Source: Myxococcota bacterium (GTDB taxonomy: Bacteria; Myxococcota_A; UBA9160; UBA4427). Taken from it: DNA of 64,000 bases. The stretch lies in the NCBI GenBank assembly GCA_965250285.1, contig OZ252299.1, positions 5,024,001 to 5,088,000 of the forward strand, in the 5' to 3' direction. This document shows, in pieces, positions 44,692 through 53,383 of the stretch. Under the pieces are notes generated by a model. It was not told the DNA's origin and made no database searches. It saw nothing but the letters and a program-made list of their open reading frames with translations. Each line of letters begins with the position of its first letter. Positions within the stretch are counted from its first letter, which is position 1. The position numbers and the translations under genes are program-made.

Positions 44692-45432
44692 CTAGAGCCG
44701 TACCGGCAGGGTGCCTTCGAGGCGGATGGCGCGCGCCGTCACCCGGGCGCGGATCGCGACGATCTCGACGCCCTCTTTCGCGACTGCGCGAAGGGTCTCG
44801 CCGTACGCGGGGTCGATCTCGTCGGCCGGCGAGACGCTCGAGCAGTCGCCCCGCTGCACGCAGAAGAGCAGCACCGCCCGGTGCCCGGTCGCGCGCAGGC
44901 CTGCGAGCACTTCGAGGTGTTTGCGGCCGCGCTCGGTGACGGCGTCTGGGAAGAGCGCGCGCGCACTGTTCGCCATCGTCACGCTCTTGACCTCGACGTA
45001 GGCGTCTTCGTCGCGACGCCGATGTCGCGAGAGCCGGAAGTCGAGGCGACTGTTCGTCGAGATCTCGGCCGGCACGCTGGCCTCGGCGCGGATCTCGCGG
45101 TAGCCCGCGAGCCCGCTGATCGCGCCCGAGGCGAGTGCGCGCGAGGCCAGCTGGTTGGCACGCAGCGTGTGCAGCCCGACCCAGACTCGCCCGACGCGAA
45201 TCATTTCGAGGGTGTGCGCGAGCTTGCGTTTCGGGTTGTCGCTGGTCGAGCAGCGCACACGTGAGCCGGGCCGATCCGTGCCCCGCATGCTGCCGGGGTT
45301 GGGACAGTGCACGGTCACGACATCGCCGGAGGCCAGCTCGACGTCGGCGAGGAACCGCTTGTAGCGCCGCAGCAGACGGCCCTCGAGGTGGGCTTCGGGA
45401 TCGATCGAGACGGTCGGTTGACGCGGCGGCAT
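44692..45432 (-). CDS. sfsA: SfsA nuclease-fold protein
   Basis: RYKRFLADV, HCPNPGSM, EVKSVT, FPDAVTERGRKHL. Confidence 0.93.
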   Translation of the reverse strand: MPPRQPTVSIDPEAHLEGRLLRRYKRFLADVELASGDVVTVHCPNPGSMRGTDRPGSRVRCSTSDNPKRKLAHTLEMIRVGRVWVGLHTLRANQLASRALASGAISGLAGYREIRAEASVPAEISTNSRLDFRLSRHRRRDEDAYVEVKSVTMANSARALFPDAVTERGRKHLEVLAGLRATGHRAVLLFCVQRGDCSSVSPADEIDPAYGETLRAVAKEGVEIVAIRARVTARAIRLEGTLPVRL

Positions 45433-45501
45433 CGCAATCGCGAGGCTAGCAGCGATCGCGATCCCCCCGTTCGAATGACCTGGGGAACCTCTGCACGGTC
45501 C

Positions 45502-45770
45502 GCTGTGCCAGGGCCGGGGCAGGCGGGGGCACCGTGCTCAGACATTCTCGGCGCGATCCGCCAGGGAAGCTCGTTTGCCGCGCACGTCGCGCCTGCGAAC
45601 TGCGCGCGGTACCCCCGCCTGCCCCGGCCTCGAGAGGCTGTGCCAGGGCCGGGGCAGGCGGGGGCACCGTGCTCAGACATTCTCGGCGCGACCTGCCTGG
45701 GAAGCTCGTTTGTTGCGCACGTCGCGCCTGCGAACTGCGCGCGGTACCCCCGCCTGCCCCGGCCTCGGGA
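45502..45770. repeat. Two tandem 135-bp copies of a long-hairpin element with 23-bp terminal inverted repeats (REP/MITE-like)
   Basis: Units start at 45502 and 45637; arms GGCCGGGGCAGGCGGGGGCACCG / CGGTACCCCCGCCTGCCCCGGCC (1 mismatch). Confidence 0.9.
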
Positions 45771-45847
45771 CGTTTTGGTCGCAGCGCAGCGCGCTCCCCC
45801 AGGAAGCGCTCGCGGCGGGTGCGTGGGGCGAGTTCTGCAGGGCATCC

Positions 45848-46696
45848 CTAGCCGAGCACGTGGTAGCCCCCGTCGACGTGTCGAATCTCGCCGGTGATGC
45901 CGACGCCGCGTCGCAGCAGATGGCAGACCTCGTAGGCCAGCGCGTCGGGGCTGGCGTTGCCGAGCGGCGACTGCGCGTTGGCGCGTGCCTCCGCGTCGGA
46001 GAGGCCGGGGATCGCCCCGCCCGCGCGCGAGGCACTGTAGGGCGAGAATCGGATCGCGTTGACGCGCGTCTGCCGGTCGCGTCCGAGCTCGACGGCGAGC
46101 TCGGTCACGATGCGCTCGAGCGCGGCCTTCGCCACGCCGACGTTCCGATACGGGTGCGTCACTGAGCGTTCGGCCCCGATGTAGCTGAGCGCGACGAGCG
46201 AGGCGCCTCCACTCAGACGGCCCGTCTCGAGGAGCGCTCGCGTGAGCGCGATCATCGAGTAGGCCGACACGTTCATACACTCGAGGAACGCATCGCGGGG
46301 CGTGTCGATGAGGCGCGGGCTCTGGTCGCCTCGAATCGTGCGATCGAACGCCACGGCGTGGACGACGCCGTCGACGCACACGTCGAGATCAACGAGCGCC
46401 GCGCCGAGCGAAGCGAGGCTCTCGTCATTCGAGACGTTGCAGTCGAGCGTGGGCACATCCGCGCCGAGCTCGGCCTCGACCGTCTTGCGGAAGCCTTCGA
46501 AGCTCGATCGCAGGTGATCGAGGGCGCGCTCCGACGTCTCGGGCGGCGCGTGCTGCGGCCCGAGGCCTGTGCACAACAGGCGCGCACCCTGACGACGGAT
46601 CTCCCGCGCGATCGGAAGGGCAAGCGAGGCTTCGTCGGTGATCCCCGTGACGAGCACGCATCGGTCGGAGAGGGGGCCGGGTGATTCGACGTGCAT
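45848..46696 (-). CDS. fabI: Enoyl-ACP reductase (FabI-like SDR)
   Basis: LVTGITDEASLA, VHAVAF, SAYS, LSYIGAER...YRNVGVAKAALE, HVDGG. Confidence 0.8.
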   Translation of the reverse strand: MHVESPGPLSDRCVLVTGITDEASLALPIAREIRRQGARLLCTGLGPQHAPPETSERALDHLRSSFEGFRKTVEAELGADVPTLDCNVSNDESLASLGAALVDLDVCVDGVVHAVAFDRTIRGDQSPRLIDTPRDAFLECMNVSAYSMIALTRALLETGRLSGGASLVALSYIGAERSVTHPYRNVGVAKAALERIVTELAVELGRDRQTRVNAIRFSPYSASRAGGAIPGLSDAEARANAQSPLGNASPDALAYEVCHLLRRGVGITGEIRHVDGGYHVLG

Positions 46697-46777: not shown

Positions 46778-49276
46778 TCAGGCCTCGACCCAGACGCCGG
46801 GTTCGGCGGTGCGGCGAAGCAGGGGGGCTTCTGCGCTCGTCCAGGCCATCAGGTGGATCCAGCCATTCTCGACGAGCTCGCGGACGTGCTCGTGCCGGGC
46901 GAGCACTGCATCGAGATCATCGGGTGCCGCAGCGATGATCGCCGTCAGCTTGAGTGGCTCGTGCAGGTAGCGCTCGCCGTCGTGCACCGACTGCCAGGGC
47001 AACCCGACCTGCAGGTCGCTTGCGTTGCCGAGCTGCACCCCGTGTCGTCCGACCACGTTGTGGAGCGCCTTGTGGCCGCTGCCGAACGTGACGTTGTCGG
47101 TCGTCGACGCGAAGTACTGCAGGTTGATCCAGCTCGCGACGACGAGCGGCGCGGTCATGATCAGCTCGAGCACACTGCCTTCGGCATCGTCGCTCGCCTG
47201 GTAGTCGTGCAGGAACGTGCGCCCTCCGAGGTCGGTGCCCGTGGTCCAGGCCCGCGGCGCCGCGATGAATGCCGCGTTGCCGGCGAGGCCCCACTCGGGG
47301 CGTACTTCGGACCAGTCGCGCGATCGGCCCTGGATGCGCTTCGCGAGGTTGCCCTGCGCCCGCTCTCCGAGGTCGGGGGCGCGCTCGCATCGCGTGGCCG
47401 CCGTGGCGTCGTCGATCCACTGCTGGATGCGCGCACTCAGCTTGGGGTCGATCGAAGGCGCATCGAAGAACTCGACCGTGTCGCAGGTCGTGTCGTGCAG
47501 ACCGGCGATGAACACCGTGTCGTCGGGGATGTCGATGCCGCGTTCGGCGAGCCCGGCGCGGACATCGGGCGACTGGAGCGCCGCCGCCGCGACGCGCGCA
47601 TTCACATCGCCTCGGTGGCCGCCGCATGCGCCGCAGTCCAGGCCGGACGCGTAGGGGTTGTTCGTCGAGGTGCTGCCATGCCCGCAGATCAGCACGACTC
47701 GAGCGAAGTCTCGCACGAGACCCATGTTGCGCAGCGCTCCCTCGGCGAGGTCGATCTGCATGTCGAGTGTCAGACCGCTCTCGTGGTCGTGCGACGCATC
47801 GAGGCGCGGCGCGAAGCTCGAGTCGACCTCGCGCGCCCCCGGCCGGGTCCAGCCCAGCGAATCCGAGATCAGCCGACCGGCGAACCCCAGGCCGAGCGTC
47901 TCGACGAAGGGATACGCGAGGACCGAGAGCTTTCGAAGCGAACTCAGCCAAGCGGCGCTGTCTCGCTCGCCGACGAGGCGCTTCTCGTCGTTGTGAGAGC
48001 CTTCGCTGCAGACTCGGGCCGCCGGAGACAGGAGCACCGGGCACCGTGCGGAGCCGCTCGTCTGACCGACACCGACGTGTTCGAGTGCGAAGCCGAAGAA
48101 GCCGGCGAAGCCGATCGTGCGAATGCCCGGCGACTGCGCTTCGAGGTGTCGTCTCAGGACCTCCGAGCGCACGTCGATGCAGAACACGGCCTGGAGGTCG
48201 GGGCGCTCGGTTGTCGTCTCGCGGCCCGGCCCGGCCGTCAGGCGGCCGAGGAGCGCGTGCTGATACCCGAGCTCGTAGGCGTGCTGCCAGACGATTCGGC
48301 GCCCGGCGTCGCTCAAGAGTCCGCTCGGCGCGTCGCTCGCGGTCAAGTGACCCGCGCGCCGCAGCCTCAGCTGGTCGGGGGCCATCCGGTCGATCGCCCC
48401 GTCGAAGGCGATGCGCATGGCGAGCAGGTGCACGATGGTGTCGTCGACGTGGCCCACGAGTCGCGCCTCGTGATCGAGCCGTCGTGCGTAGCCCGCCCAG
48501 CCGGCGATCGTCGCGAGGGCCCGTGTCATGAACGGCACCCGCTGCTCGTGCGGAACGCCGATCTGTAGCAGCACCTTGGCGATCACCTCGACCGGGTCGT
48601 GGGGCAGGTCGCGTACGTAGTCGCGAAAGCCCGAGAGTCCGAGCAGCTCGGGGCTGGGGTCGATCGTGGCGTGGCTGCGCCAGGCTTCGAAGAGCGGCCG
48701 ATCGCGGTCGGGCTGAGCCCACGCGCTCTCGCCGAGATCGAACCGGCCCGAGCACCACCGGGCAATCTCGCGCTCGGCGAGGGTCGCGAACTCGGTGTTG
48801 CCGACCCGATCGACGGCCTCGGCCACCGTCTCGACGCGGAGACTCGCCCCTCCGGCGGCTTGGCCGTCGGCGAGCAGGGCCTCGAGCAGGTCGTCGGTGG
48901 CGATCTCCGCGAGTTCGGTTCGCTCGAGCATGCGCGGGGCGTCGCCGAGGGCGGCCAGCACGTTCGGGTGCGCGATGCGCCCCTGCTCGTACTGCGCGCG
49001 GTAGAAGGCGCTCGACATCGTGACTTCGCCGTGCAGCAGCTGATCGATCTGGTGCACTGCGTTGGCGTAGGTCGAGTCGGAGAAGCCCATGAAGGGGTTC
49101 ACCGCGACGAAGTTGCGCAGGCTCCAGAGCGGCGCGATGCGCGACGCGGCCTGCTCGATCTCGCTGCGGATCGAGTCGTCGCGGGGTGCTTCGACCGGGT
49201 CGTGCAGCTCGACGACCTGAGCGTGTGCCTCGTCGGCCGAGGCCGATTCGATCGGAGATTCGAGCTGGAAACTCAT
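46778..49276 (-). CDS. dabA: Inorganic carbon transporter subunit DabA (DUF2309, beta-CA-like)
   Basis: IAPLWSLRNFVAVNPFMG, FCIDVRSE, CGHGS, LDCGACGG zinc ligands, WSEVRPEWGLAGNA, HEPLKL. Confidence 0.93.
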   Translation of the reverse strand: MSFQLESPIESASADEAHAQVVELHDPVEAPRDDSIRSEIEQAASRIAPLWSLRNFVAVNPFMGFSDSTYANAVHQIDQLLHGEVTMSSAFYRAQYEQGRIAHPNVLAALGDAPRMLERTELAEIATDDLLEALLADGQAAGGASLRVETVAEAVDRVGNTEFATLAEREIARWCSGRFDLGESAWAQPDRDRPLFEAWRSHATIDPSPELLGLSGFRDYVRDLPHDPVEVIAKVLLQIGVPHEQRVPFMTRALATIAGWAGYARRLDHEARLVGHVDDTIVHLLAMRIAFDGAIDRMAPDQLRLRRAGHLTASDAPSGLLSDAGRRIVWQHAYELGYQHALLGRLTAGPGRETTTERPDLQAVFCIDVRSEVLRRHLEAQSPGIRTIGFAGFFGFALEHVGVGQTSGSARCPVLLSPAARVCSEGSHNDEKRLVGERDSAAWLSSLRKLSVLAYPFVETLGLGFAGRLISDSLGWTRPGAREVDSSFAPRLDASHDHESGLTLDMQIDLAEGALRNMGLVRDFARVVLICGHGSTSTNNPYASGLDCGACGGHRGDVNARVAAAALQSPDVRAGLAERGIDIPDDTVFIAGLHDTTCDTVEFFDAPSIDPKLSARIQQWIDDATAATRCERAPDLGERAQGNLAKRIQGRSRDWSEVRPEWGLAGNAAFIAAPRAWTTGTDLGGRTFLHDYQASDDAEGSVLELIMTAPLVVASWINLQYFASTTDNVTFGSGHKALHNVVGRHGVQLGNASDLQVGLPWQSVHDGERYLHEPLKLTAIIAAAPDDLDAVLARHEHVRELVENGWIHLMAWTSAEAPLLRRTAEPGVWVEA

Positions 49277-50910
49277 CGGATGACTCCTTCAGCGGGATGG
49301 GTCGACCGCGAGGCGATCGGAGAGACGGGCCACAGCCGCGAGACCAGTCGATTCTGCAGCGTGCCGATGTGGAAGCCGCGCGAGGCGTGCACCCAGGCGG
49401 CGCGCCCCAGTCGGGTCGTGCGCGCCCAGGCGCCTGCATACTGCGCGGCGAACGCGATCGCGAAGAGCGTCACGATGGCGGCCGTGAGCGGCATCGGTGT
49501 GGTCGGGATCGCGGCGGCGCTCGGGATCGCGCTCGCGATCGCGGCTTCGAAGAGACCGACGCCGGCGAAGTAGAGCAGCGCGATGACGGCGCCGACGGCG
49601 GCTCCGCTCACGATCCGCATCAGGGGGTGGCCGACCCGGACAGGAGGCGCGAGCACGAGCTGCGCCGTCGCCAGGGCGAGAATCGAACCCAACACCGTCA
49701 ATCCAGGCTTGGAGGCGAGTTCGATCCCGAGCGCCCACACAGTGCTCGTGACGACGAAGGTCCCGCTCGCGAGCGCGAGCACGACCAGCCAGGGGCCGGG
49801 CGTGGTGCGTGCATCGAGCGCCTTCCGGGGCGTGGGATCCGGATCGACCACCGATCCTGATGCGAGGAATGCGTGGGCCTTGTAGAAGGCGTGGCCCACC
49901 ATGTGAAGCGTGGCTGCGGCGAATGCGCCGACGCCGCACTGGAGCATCATGAAGCCCATCTGCGCGACGGTCGAGTAGGCGTACTTCCGCTTGACGTCGG
50001 TCTGAGGGAGCATCGCGAGCGCACCGACCAGCGCCGTCACGGCGCCCCCGGCCGCCAGCCAGGGCATCACGGCCGGCGCTTCGACGAGCAGCGGGCTCAT
50101 GCGGATGAGCAGCAGCCCCCCCATGTTGATGATCCCGGCGTGCATGAGCGCCGACACCGGCGTCGGCGTCTCGAGCGAATCGGGCAGCCAGGTGTGGAAG
50201 GGGAACTGTGCCGACTTGGTCATCGCGCCGAGCACCAGGAGCACTGCGATCGGCACGGTGGTCGACGGGGCTGCCCCGGGCAGCAGCGCGAACAGCTCGT
50301 CGTACTGGAGCGTCCCGAAGTCGACGGCGACCATCGTGAATGCGGCGAGCAGGAACAGGTCGCCGAGCCGGCTGGTCACGAACTTCTTGCGCGCCGCCAG
50401 CTGTGCCGCGGGTCGATCCGCGAAATGGGTCAGGAGCCGATGGAGACCGTGGCTCGTGGCGATCCAGCCGACGAGCACCTGGAAGAGGTCGGCGGCGACG
50501 ACCAGCAGCAGGACCGCACTGAGGGTGTAGGCGATCCACTGGCTGAAGCCGGCCTGGTTCGGGTCGCCGTCCATGTAGCGGATCGAGAAGCGAGCGACGA
50601 CCGCACCGACCATCGTCACGGTCATGAGCAGGAGCGCCGTGAGGCCGTCGTAGCGAGCGCCGAGGCCGAGCTCGAGCTCGCCGACGACCGGCACCTGGAA
50701 GACGTAGGCCGTGGTCGGCGCGGCACCACTCGCGAGCGCCACCGCTCCGAGGCCGAGCGCGGCAGCGAAGGAGAGGGCCGCGCTGAGCGCGGTGGCCTGA
50801 CGTGCGCGCGCTGCGTCGAAGCGCGCCGCTCGCGAGACCGCGAAACCGACGGTGCCGGGGAGGAGCGCCGCGCAGAGCGCCAGCAGGGCCGTTTCGGATG
50901 AGATCCACAT
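49273..50910 (-). CDS. dabB: Inorganic carbon transporter membrane subunit DabB (NuoL/MrpA-like)
   Basis: KSAQFPFHTWLPDSLETPTPVSALMHAG, YSTVAQMGFM, HAFYKAHAFL; ATGA-coupled to dabA; GAGGAG RBS. Confidence 0.92.
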   Translation of the reverse strand: MWISSETALLALCAALLPGTVGFAVSRAARFDAARARQATALSAALSFAAALGLGAVALASGAAPTTAYVFQVPVVGELELGLGARYDGLTALLLMTVTMVGAVVARFSIRYMDGDPNQAGFSQWIAYTLSAVLLLVVAADLFQVLVGWIATSHGLHRLLTHFADRPAAQLAARKKFVTSRLGDLFLLAAFTMVAVDFGTLQYDELFALLPGAAPSTTVPIAVLLVLGAMTKSAQFPFHTWLPDSLETPTPVSALMHAGIINMGGLLLIRMSPLLVEAPAVMPWLAAGGAVTALVGALAMLPQTDVKRKYAYSTVAQMGFMMLQCGVGAFAAATLHMVGHAFYKAHAFLASGSVVDPDPTPRKALDARTTPGPWLVVLALASGTFVVTSTVWALGIELASKPGLTVLGSILALATAQLVLAPPVRVGHPLMRIVSGAAVGAVIALLYFAGVGLFEAAIASAIPSAAAIPTTPMPLTAAIVTLFAIAFAAQYAGAWARTTRLGRAAWVHASRGFHIGTLQNRLVSRLWPVSPIASRSTHPAEGVIR

Positions 50911-51032: not shown

Positions 51033-51157
51033 ATCGAACAACACGACATAGATTTCGTCAAGTGAGATTCGCAAAATAAATTTCTGCGCGTCCTGAGATC
51101 CATCTCGCGAAAAAAAAGCCATGAACTGATTGACACGAAATTTGTATCGGGTAATTG
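51033..51157. promoter_or_regulatory. AT-rich divergent promoter region with three imperfect ACGAAAT-N2-ATTTCGT palindromes
   Basis: Sites at 51043-51058, 51071-51086 and 51135-51150; minus-strand TTGACG-17nt-TTCGAT; plus-strand TTGACA at 51130. Confidence 0.65.
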
Positions 51158-51188: not shown

Positions 51189-51431
51189 ATGAGCAGCCCG
51201 ACCCATCCCCAGTTCCAACCCCTGCGGGGCGTCGATCGTTCCGAGAGCGGCGTCACCGCCCCCAGCTGGCCCCAGTGGATCCGCCGGCTCTTCCGAAGTC
51301 GGCCCCAGGCGATGCACGCGGTGGCCGAAGCCGAGACCCAGAGCGGCCAGGCGGGGACCCGCCCGGCCGAGCGCTCCCTGCTCGGCCCCGTGCGCACGGT
51401 GGTCGACCCGAAAGACATCTATCTGGCCTGA
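51189..51431 (+). CDS. Small hypothetical protein (80 aa)
   Basis: Strong AAGGAGG RBS; first gene after the divergent promoter; no recognised domain. Confidence 0.6.
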   Translation: MSSPTHPQFQPLRGVDRSESGVTAPSWPQWIRRLFRSRPQAMHAVAEAETQSGQAGTRPAERSLLGPVRTVVDPKDIYLA

Positions 51432-51489
51432 GCCTCGGCTCGCGTCCGGGCTCGGGCCGATGCTCGAGCCACCCCGAAAGGAGAACATC

Positions 51490-52029
51490 ATGTCCAGCGC
51501 CATGCCCATCTCGCTGCAGCGGCACCAGCACCTCTCGAACCTCAGTGAGCAGGCCGGCCAGCTCGCATCCGAGAGCGCCGATTGCCTCGTGCTCTTCAGC
51601 GCCGCGGCCGGGACGAACGCCAAGCCCGGATGGGCTCGGGCTCTTCCGAACGCCCTGCAGCTTCAGGCCCCCGGTGCCGAGGTCGACGACGGCGACCTGC
51701 GCGACGCGGTCCGCCACGCCGTGCACGAGCTCGGCGTCAGTGAAGTCCTCGTGATCCTGCACACCGGCTGCCCGACGCTAAAGCCGAACGACGAGTCGCC
51801 GATGACCCGACCCGAGCCGAACGATCTGATGGGTCGGATCCAGGTCAACCGCCAGCGCACCGAGGCGTCCCACGAGGCGGCAAAGCAGCGCGTGCGCGTG
51901 GCCGTTGGCTCGCTGTCGGCGGATGCATCGCTCGGCGACGTATCGGTGGGGGGCCTCGTCCACATCGATGAGAGCGGCGTGATGTTGAGCTACGACGCGA
52001 GCCGCGATGCCTTCGAGGCGCTGTTGTAG
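51490..52029 (+). CDS. Degenerate beta-carbonic-anhydrase homolog (HxxC kept, CxDxR lost)
   Basis: Aligns by eye with the neighbouring CA: AVRHAVHELGVSEVLVILHTGC vs TIEYAVRVLGVQYAIVCGHSKC; AAGGAG RBS. Confidence 0.7.
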   Translation: MSSAMPISLQRHQHLSNLSEQAGQLASESADCLVLFSAAAGTNAKPGWARALPNALQLQAPGAEVDDGDLRDAVRHAVHELGVSEVLVILHTGCPTLKPNDESPMTRPEPNDLMGRIQVNRQRTEASHEAAKQRVRVAVGSLSADASLGDVSVGGLVHIDESGVMLSYDASRDAFEALL

Positions 52030-52212: not shown

Positions 52213-52566
52213 TCAGGGCGCGTCCTGCTCGATCATGTCGACGAGGTCGGCGATGCGACGATGCGCTTCGATCGGGTGGCGGAGCGGCGCCGACAGCGCG
52301 AACCGATAGTGGTTGCGCAGACCCTTGCGTTCGCGGATCACATAGCCGGCCTCTTCGAGCTCGCCGAGGATGCGCTGCACCGATCGCTCGGTGATCCCGA
52401 CGAGGTTGGCCACCTCGCGGAGCGTCAGATCGGGATCGCGGTGAAGTGAGATCAGCACGTGCGTGTGGTTCGACAAGAAGGTCCACTTGGGTCCTTCGCC
52501 GTCGGGCTCGGAGCGGCGCGCCGACTTGGCGGCTGCCTTCTTCGCCTTCTTCGCTCGTGCTGCCAT
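52213..52566 (-). CDS. Small winged-HTH transcriptional regulator
   Basis: WTFLSNHTHVL...LREVANLVGITERSVQRILGELEEAGY...GLRNHY...PLRHP. Confidence 0.88.
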   Translation of the reverse strand: MAARAKKAKKAAAKSARRSEPDGEGPKWTFLSNHTHVLISLHRDPDLTLREVANLVGITERSVQRILGELEEAGYVIRERKGLRNHYRFALSAPLRHPIEAHRRIADLVDMIEQDAP

Positions 52567-52774: not shown

Positions 52775-53383
52775 ATGGACGAGCTCATCGACGGCGTTCG
52801 CCGCTTCCAGTCGGACGTGTTTCCGTCTCGGCAACCGCTGTTCGAGTCGCTGGGTGCCGGGCAGCAGCCGCGGGCGCTGCTCGTGACCTGCTCCGATTCG
52901 CGCATCGATCCGTCGCTCTTCACCCAGACCGAGCCGGGTGAGCTCTTCGTCGTCCGGAACGCCGGCAACATCGTCCCGCCGGCCTCGGCGGGCACCGGCG
53001 GCGAGTCGGCCACGATCGAGTACGCCGTGCGCGTGCTCGGCGTCCAGTACGCGATCGTGTGCGGCCACAGCAAGTGTGGGGCGATGGCTGCAGCCGCCGA
53101 TCCAGAGAGCGCCGCGGAGCTGCCCCAGGTGAGTGAGTGGATCCGGTTCGCCGAAGAGGCGGTTCCGGCCGCGTCGGCCTTCTCGTCCGAGCCCGATGAA
53201 GCGCTCAGGGTGGTGGCGGCCAACGTGCTGCTGCAGCTCGACCATTTGCGCTCGCATCCCGCCGTCGCCGAGGCCGAGGCCGACGGCCGTCTCGAGCTGC
53301 ATGGCTGGATCTACCGCTTCGAGACCGGTGAGGTGTTGGTCGTCGACCCCAGCGGTGTGCTCCACGGCCTGAGCGAAGTCTGA
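52775..53383 (+). CDS. can: Beta-class carbonic anhydrase
   Basis: CSDSR, GELFVVRNAGNIVP, CGHSKCGAM, LHGWIY; AGGAG RBS. Confidence 0.93.
   Translation: MDELIDGVRRFQSDVFPSRQPLFESLGAGQQPRALLVTCSDSRIDPSLFTQTEPGELFVVRNAGNIVPPASAGTGGESATIEYAVRVLGVQYAIVCGHSKCGAMAAAADPESAAELPQVSEWIRFAEEAVPAASAFSSEPDEALRVVAANVLLQLDHLRSHPAVAEAEADGRLELHGWIYRFETGEVLVVDPSGVLHGLSEV

Follow-up and report, generated by a model that had tools for sequence, protein, structure and literature searches.

A pump-linked beta-carbonic anhydrase pseudoenzyme and its possible role as a silencer of carbonic anhydrase in Myxococcota

Introduction

How one cell can run an inorganic-carbon pump and also keep a free carbonic anhydrase (CA) in its cytoplasm is an open question, as the literature describes the two as rarely coexisting and the CA as wasting the work of the pump. 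According to the available part of one study (Fan et al. 2021; PMC8552792), MpsAB pumps and CA rarely occur together and CA undermines the pump: it turns pumped bicarbonate into CO2 that escapes, and co-expression slightly reduces growth. In Firmicutes that have both, the same text places a divergent putative CA directly downstream of mpsAB. Further background on DAB pumps comes from the accessible parts of three papers (10.1101/476713, PMC13684180 and 10.64898/2026.03.13.711513).

The window analysed here, a stretch of 64,000 nucleotides from a Myxococcota genome, contains a DAB2-type pump, a canonical beta-CA and, between them, a gene for a CA-like protein without the catalytic motif (pCA; Table 1). 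What pCA does beside a pump and a working CA is the question that this locus raises.

Table 1. Features of the pCA locus, in coordinates of the window
Feature	Position	Strand	Remarks
dabA, soluble pump subunit	46778..49276	-	Pfam PF10070, E=1.7e-242
dabB, membrane subunit of DAB2-type inorganic-carbon pump	49273..50910	-	Pfam PF00361, E=3.9e-49
Second operator copy, overlapping inferred dabBA promoter	51042..51059	.	score 18.7, rank 3 in genome
Palindromic operator (consensus CACGAAATnnATTTCGTG), overlapping TTGACA of inferred peptide-pCA promoter	51134..51151	.	score 18.2, rank 4 in genome
Small ORF (peptide), 80 aa, directly upstream of pCA	51189..51431	+	variable body; conserved C-terminus R-T-x-x-D-P-[RK]-x-I-Y-L-A-stop
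Ribosome-binding site (RBS) of pCA, AAAGGAG	51477..51483	+	6 nt before ATG; read from sequence
pCA, beta-CA-fold pseudoenzyme, 179 aa	51490..52029	+	Ser37 at zinc ligand 1; no Asp-x-Arg, no Gln; His91 and Cys94 kept
Ser37 codon of pCA, AGC	51598..51600	+	position of first zinc Cys
Small winged-helix regulator (wHTH), convergent with pCA	52213..52566	-	HTH_24/MarR_2; inferred to bind operator
Canonical beta-CA (CSDSR, HSKCG), proposed target	52775..53383	+	Pro_CA E=5.9e-46; no operator upstream

Results

A beta-CA fold without the catalytic residues

A sequence-only reading of this DNA had described pCA as a pseudoenzyme in an intact frame with a good RBS, colinear with the neighbouring CA in four blocks. 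The 179-aa frame is indeed unbroken, with AAAGGAG six bases 5' of the ATG. Plain BLASTP between the two proteins is not significant (E = 2.7; 25 identical of 174 aligned residues), and pCA scores 18.1 bits against Pfam Pro_CA (E = 0.0035), under the gathering score of 25.7. Comparison of the pCA family alignment with the neighbouring CA in hhalign gives a probability of 95.9% (E = 5e-9 over 143 columns) and aligns all four of the proposed blocks. An AlphaFold2 model (mean pLDDT 89.7) retrieved beta-CAs in every match listed by Foldseek (best E = 8.8e-8), and its best match by VIA was CcaA (5swc; Z = 14.2, rmsd 4.4 Å over 142 residues). The family profile matched 36 solved sequences, all of them CAs. 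By AlphaFold2, Foldseek, VIA and hhalign, pCA has the fold of a beta-CA.

The residues of the active site are largely replaced. Relative to the neighbouring CA, pCA has Ser37 for Cys39, Ala39 for Asp41, Gly41 for Arg43, Glu28 for Gln30 and Pro95 for Gly102, and retains the zinc ligands His91 and Cys94. The window copy thus lacks a complete Cys-His-Cys triad (Ser37 for the first Cys), the Asp-x-Arg dyad of the CxDxR motif (A39/G41) and the transition-state Gln/His that is donated across the dimer (Glu28). At the Ser37 codon AGC, contigs from four of four sequencing runs, all from one study and possibly the source data themselves, show no other letter.

A conserved family under purifying selection

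We aligned 39 family members and, leaving out one N-terminally cut row, counted residues in 38. CxDxR occurs in none of them. The loss of the first zinc Cys is not family-wide: 32 of 38 members keep it, including the closest relative (P0005, 59% identity to the window pCA), and its absence is particular to the window copy and a few others. The zinc-ligand His is present in 33 of 38 members, the second Cys in 30 and the full triad in 28; at least 10 members have lost a zinc ligand, and their reading frames remain intact. At the dyad position, 12 of 38 members have Asp and 21 have Glu (either residue, 33/38). The transition-state Gln survives in two members and the Gly after the second Cys in one, whereas scaffold positions stay conserved. 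In 47 canonical CAs used for comparison, the Gln is present in all and the Gly in 46; neither residue was used to choose these proteins, whereas their CxDxR and HxxC counts hold by construction because they were selected on those motifs.

In a quick tree of pCAs and CAs, the pCA family forms one side of a branch (SH-aLRT 100) and spans two phyla. A phmmer search of 50%-identity representatives yielded 27 proteins, among which are the query itself and a small number of fragments or chance matches, and the ESM Atlas holds two unnamed clusters (77 and 62 members) in which Planctomycetota are commonest and Pro_CA is annotated on 39% and 24% of members. Among 28 pCA members, 15 match Pro_CA at E ≤ 0.01 and one matches Pro_CA_2 (PF20393; E = 0.0096), a family that no protein from five genomes matched over its cut-off. 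NCBIfam contains no relevant family for pCA, the upstream peptide or the wHTH. When 401 genomes of the phylum were searched with the profile, the best 29 loci examined other than the pCA gene were all ordinary CAs. Word-index searches recovered few pCA members. A search for fused forms of 355–2000 aa came back empty, which is weak evidence against them. In the literature searched, mostly outside subscription journals, we found no description of the pCA family, the upstream peptide or the operator.

A codon model of ten genes gives an omega of 0.203 for pCA, compared with 0.118 for DabB, 0.144 for PurK and 0.077 for the wHTH; pairwise values for pCA range from 0.16 to 0.66, with dS saturated. 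Selection on pCA is purifying yet looser than on its neighbours. All ten reading frames are intact, whereas in neutral simulations of one lineage the frame stays open in only 7–24% of runs; an omega of about 0.2 among the homologues gives no sign of neutral decay. With the catalytic motif lost, the fold kept and purifying selection acting, the family agrees with the pseudoenzyme reading, which fold, residue loss and selection together support. By sequence definition, pCA is a real, conserved, pump-linked beta-CA pseudoenzyme.

The conserved neighbour is the pump

Within the order of the host, 8 of 193 genomes carry pCA, and three metagenome contigs bring the total to 11 loci. A divergent dabB lies upstream of pCA in 10 of these, the eleventh being at a contig end, and a convergent wHTH gene lies downstream in 10. 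A canonical CA adjoins pCA in only 3 of 11 loci. The conserved link of pCA is therefore with the pump, not with an adjacent CA. Immediately after pCA come the purine genes purE and/or purK in 6 of 11 loci, and in 2 of 7 loci of a planctomycete sister group; stop and start codons often overlap there. Six of these seven planctomycete-type loci have pCA near dabA, three of them directly behind it; the seventh genome (G831) has a pCA member, and no DabA was found in it. We found no rubisco in the host genome, and one in only one of five genomes tested.

Several further features of these loci were recorded. An enoyl-ACP-reductase-like gene (45848-46696, minus strand) follows dabA in the window and in locus L040; in locus L085 a gene of this type lies between the promoter and the peptide gene, which suggests that it belongs to the regulon. 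Repeated blocks at about 45400-45800, between the sfsA-like and enoyl-reductase-like genes, are visible in the translated frames. Locus L139, in a record titled Alcaligenaceae, groups with planctomycete DabB and pCA, possibly through mis-binning or transfer. In a search of plasmids, none of the best 50 of 124 matches was a DAB locus from a Firmicute.

A small protein encoded before pCA

An ORF of 60–90 aa ending in DP[RK]xIYL[AS] precedes 10 of 11 intact pCA genes. Searching 193 genomes with the back-translated pattern returned eight genomes, in each case before a pCA and with synonymous variation, and the reversed control returned none. Within the order of the host, the peptide is strictly tied to pCA; in the seven planctomycete-type loci examined, it is absent. 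This small protein probably modulates pCA, either through binding or at the level of translation. Its conserved C-terminus could serve for binding or act as a ribosome-arrest leader, given that in most relatives no more than about 10 nt separate the peptide stop from the RBS that follows. RNA structure between the peptide and pCA is not significant (z = 0.20).

An operator shared by pCA and the pump

An 18-bp palindrome overlaps the inferred promoters of both divergent units. We trained a matrix on other genomes and scanned the 6.25-Mb host genome; four sites score at least 18, compared with 0–2 for column-shuffled matrices. TTGAC is conserved in 10 loci at the peptide-pCA promoter; as scanning for sigma-70 promoters gave nothing at the threshold used, it alone places the peptide-pCA and dab promoters. 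Single remote sites are only leads, because shuffled matrices also yield up to two. The top match in the genome (G000:C1:3616584) precedes an isocitrate-dehydrogenase-like gene, the product of which would produce CO2, and the second-best (G000:C1:5295690) precedes an exporter-like ABC/HlyD/TolC-like cluster, both named from their translations. Genes similar to this cluster adjoin the dab loci L043, L044, L082 and L091.

The operator is missing before the neighbouring type of CA in all three loci in which that CA is adjacent (scores of -1.1 in the window, -6.2 and -0.9). Ordinary CAs beside a wHTH gene in other genomes of the phylum do have it (16.5 and 10.7, with a third at 7.1), which suggests that pCA descends from an operator-controlled CA, after the pump had joined the regulon. 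The wHTH itself is found in 27 of 193 genomes, compared with 8 for pCA; with the operator it occurs without pCA in eight pump genomes, and elsewhere in the phylum it also sits beside ordinary CAs. This wHTH family, which together with its palindrome is linked in two phyla to dabBA, CA or purEK, is a candidate low-CO2 repressor for which we found no published account.

pCA is retained with one pump type and one CA subfamily

DabA is present in 35 of the 193 genomes and in all eight pCA genomes of the order. We examined the DNA upstream of 40 further DabA matches, leaving out several contig-end fragments, and defined the pump type by a close DabB, the operator (scores 8.3-24.5) and the wHTH (17/17), which gave 17 genomes. 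The subfamily of the neighbouring CA (E < 1e-50) was found in 13 of 193 genomes. Seven of the pump-type genomes have both this CA subfamily and pCA, none has the CA only, one (G481) has pCA only and nine have neither; thus, pCA is lost or truncated in 9 of the 10 pump-type genomes without the CA subfamily. The association is significant (Fisher p = 4e-4, or 2e-3 if a truncated pCA is counted as present), in a sample of 17 related, partly incomplete genomes (75–98%) in which kin are not independent. On the DabB tree the label 'no pCA' needs four changes plus the truncation, and the starred branches force only one. The six genomes with the CA subfamily and without this pump type have no pCA, relaxed searches found none in five pump genomes lacking it, and none lies nearby in the seven LysR-linked DAB2 loci examined. 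Co-retention is not a matter of physical linkage, because most pCA genomes carry the CA apart from the locus.

Among the genomes with neither protein, G436 (locus L085, G436:C10) carries a truncated pCA, about 100 aa long, that has internal deletions; its peptide, purEK and wHTH are intact, and we found no beta-CA in its genome. In six of the nine, beta-CAs of other clades occur beside the pump, and these genomes get by without pCA. Faster evolution of the copy in G481 after CA loss was supported with a near outgroup (67 versus 13 changes) but not with a distant one (20 versus 16), and we therefore did not count it as evidence. A second CA of the same subfamily (G000:C1:3290557-3291123) is divergent from a LysR gene, and this LysR–CA pair recurs in all 11 other loci examined.

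Discussion

A possible silencer of CA

Our best reading, to which we give a little less than an even chance, is that pCA is an inducible dominant-negative subunit predicted to silence the working CA while the pump runs. The wHTH would repress both divergent promoters through the operator and let go at low CO2 or bicarbonate; pCA, produced alongside the DAB pump under CO2 scarcity, would then join mixed oligomers with the CA. According to the accessible part of PMC3230598, beta-CA active sites are formed at the interface of the dimer, and the other subunit supplies their Gln, Phe and Tyr. Because of this borrowing, a partner without Gln would cripple the site of the CA subunit, and a mixed dimer would have two defective sites, as pCA lacks both the Gln and the dyad. 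Silencing would break the futile cycle in which the CA converts bicarbonate brought in by the pump back into CO2.

The fold, residue loss, selection, pump linkage, shared operator and co-retention with one CA subfamily shown above form the basis of this reading. The sequence-only reading had already suggested a subunit that silences the CA while the pump is on, and this suggestion gains genomic support: pCA is kept only with the pump type and CA subfamily, with one intact exception in 17 genomes, and the operator is common to the pCA and pump promoters and absent before the CA. Several observations point the other way. A pure spoiler subunit would not need the full zinc triad kept by 28 of 38 members; with only 25 of 174 aligned residues identical, a compatible interface between pCA and CA is not assured; the co-retention comes from 17 related, partly incomplete genomes; six of the nine pump genomes with neither protein have beta-CAs of other clades; and four genomes are exceptions. 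G481 has an intact pCA and no detected CA of the subfamily, G417 has the CA subfamily and a degenerate pCA without HxxC, the planctomycete G531 has pCA and the pump, and no CA of that subfamily was found in it, and G831 is the planctomycete-type genome described above.

Other roles for pCA

A rather unlikely alternative is that pCA is an accessory or regulatory subunit of DAB2, a bicarbonate- or zinc-binding protein that attaches to DabA and gates the pump. PII-like SbtB, which gates SbtA, is the model for such a role; SbtB and other PII-like regulators are small soluble proteins encoded beside a carbon pump, as pCA is, but have an unrelated fold and sense nucleotides. The pump is the most constant neighbour of pCA in both phyla, pCA directly follows dabA in three of seven planctomycete-type loci and the zinc triad is widely kept. 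However, 8 of 17 genomes keep the pump without pCA, none of the seven LysR-linked DAB2 loci examined has it nearby, DabAB2 alone works in Escherichia coli (10.1101/476713, available part), and co-retention with one CA subfamily would be left unexplained.

Slightly less probable still is an atypical or conditional enzyme: pCA might be a slow CA that uses Glu or Asp without the Arg, or the peptide might complete it in trans, the invariant D-P-[RK] of the peptide having the spacing of the missing Asp-x-Arg dyad. The peptide is found only before pCA, and most members keep the triad (28/38) and an acidic residue at the dyad position (33/38). Precedents appear in the accessible parts of two reports: Bacillus subtilis CanC, the zinc ligands of which are unboxed according to the legend of Fig. 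1, supported growth alone (10.64898/2026.09.08.750065), and Rv1284 and DabA2 function without the Gln (10.64898/2026.03.13.711513). Against such an enzyme, the window copy is without the first Cys, the Asp, the Arg and the Gln all at once, a zinc ligand is missing from at least 10 of 38 members that remain intact, planctomycete members have no such peptide, and the pump would be undermined by a free CA that is co-induced with it (PMC8552792, available part).

The sequence-only reading had also offered a CO2 or bicarbonate sensor, which here would serve the wHTH, a regulator that has no separate sensor domain and is convergent with and adjacent to pCA in 10 of 11 loci. The proposal is weakened to the point of being improbable, as the wHTH and operator persist without pCA in eight pump genomes, the wHTH is far more widespread (27/193 versus 8/193) and sits beside ordinary CAs elsewhere. 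Moreover, the allosteric-site Arg, located by reference to the CA of Haemophilus influenzae, survives in just 19 of 38 members and is absent from the window copy.

Very improbable is a scaffold or bicarbonate carrier for the bicarbonate-using purine enzymes PurK and PurE: their genes follow pCA in 6 of 11 and 2 of 7 loci, but the purEK of the host genome lies elsewhere without the operator, and purEK is intact beside the truncated pCA and, in two other genomes, lies beside a wHTH without a nearby pCA. Least probable is a decaying duplicate of the CA, which the faster evolution of pCA than of its neighbours, the scattered ligand losses and one truncated copy might suggest, but which is largely refuted for the family by the single clade across two phyla, the omega and the open frames.

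Relation to known systems

The pCA family shares with beta-class CAs (PF00484; CcaA 5swc, E. coli Can and Coccomyxa CA) the fold, the order of strands and helices and HxxC, and most relatives of pCA keep Cys-His-Cys. It differs in lacking CxDxR, in the loss of the Gln and the Gly after the second Cys, and in forming its own clade; the window pCA also lacks the first Cys and falls below the Pfam cut-off. A possible parallel to pCA is B. subtilis CanC/YbcF, with the Firmicute putative CAs downstream of mpsAB: the available parts of two reports (PMC8552792 and 10.64898/2026.09.08.750065) describe a divergent CA-like gene in or beside a DAB/MpsAB operon, in genomes that have an ordinary CA as well. 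The pCA loci likewise encode the protein next to the pump, and the likeness is one of shared fold and context. In contrast to our best reading of pCA, CanC is reported as a secondary CA that supports growth, and the accessible text describes no inhibitor role, peptide or wHTH operator. There, CanC alone supported some growth in air, which speaks for activity in that organism and counts against the silencer reading, although its authors note conflicting mutant results (10.64898/2026.09.08.750065).

Chlamydomonas LCIB/LCIC resemble the proposed silencer as low-CO2-induced CA homologues that form a hetero-oligomer with one subunit suggested to be structural, but they are eukaryotic, of theta class according to the accessible part of a review, and their complex is believed to catalyse CO2 hydration instead of silencing a CA (PMC10096703). 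Mammalian CA VIII is likewise a catalytically dead CA fold used in regulation, but has an alpha-class fold, unrelated partners and a role in animal signalling (PMC13253706, available part).

Implications

We tentatively propose, with somewhat less assurance than the silencing role itself, that bacteria with both a DAB pump and a cytoplasmic beta-CA turned a CA of the low-CO2 regulon into a subfamily-specific protein inhibitor of CA, co-induced through the wHTH, tuned by the peptide and possibly paralleled by YbcF. If so, pCA would be a protein inhibitor of beta-CA, useful where carbon-concentrating mechanisms are engineered into hosts that have a CA of their own, and B. subtilis ybcF would deserve re-examination. 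In addition, the locus points to a candidate repressor of the low-CO2 response, together with its operator and a regulon of dabBA, purEK and isocitrate dehydrogenase, in bacteria that are largely free of rubisco.
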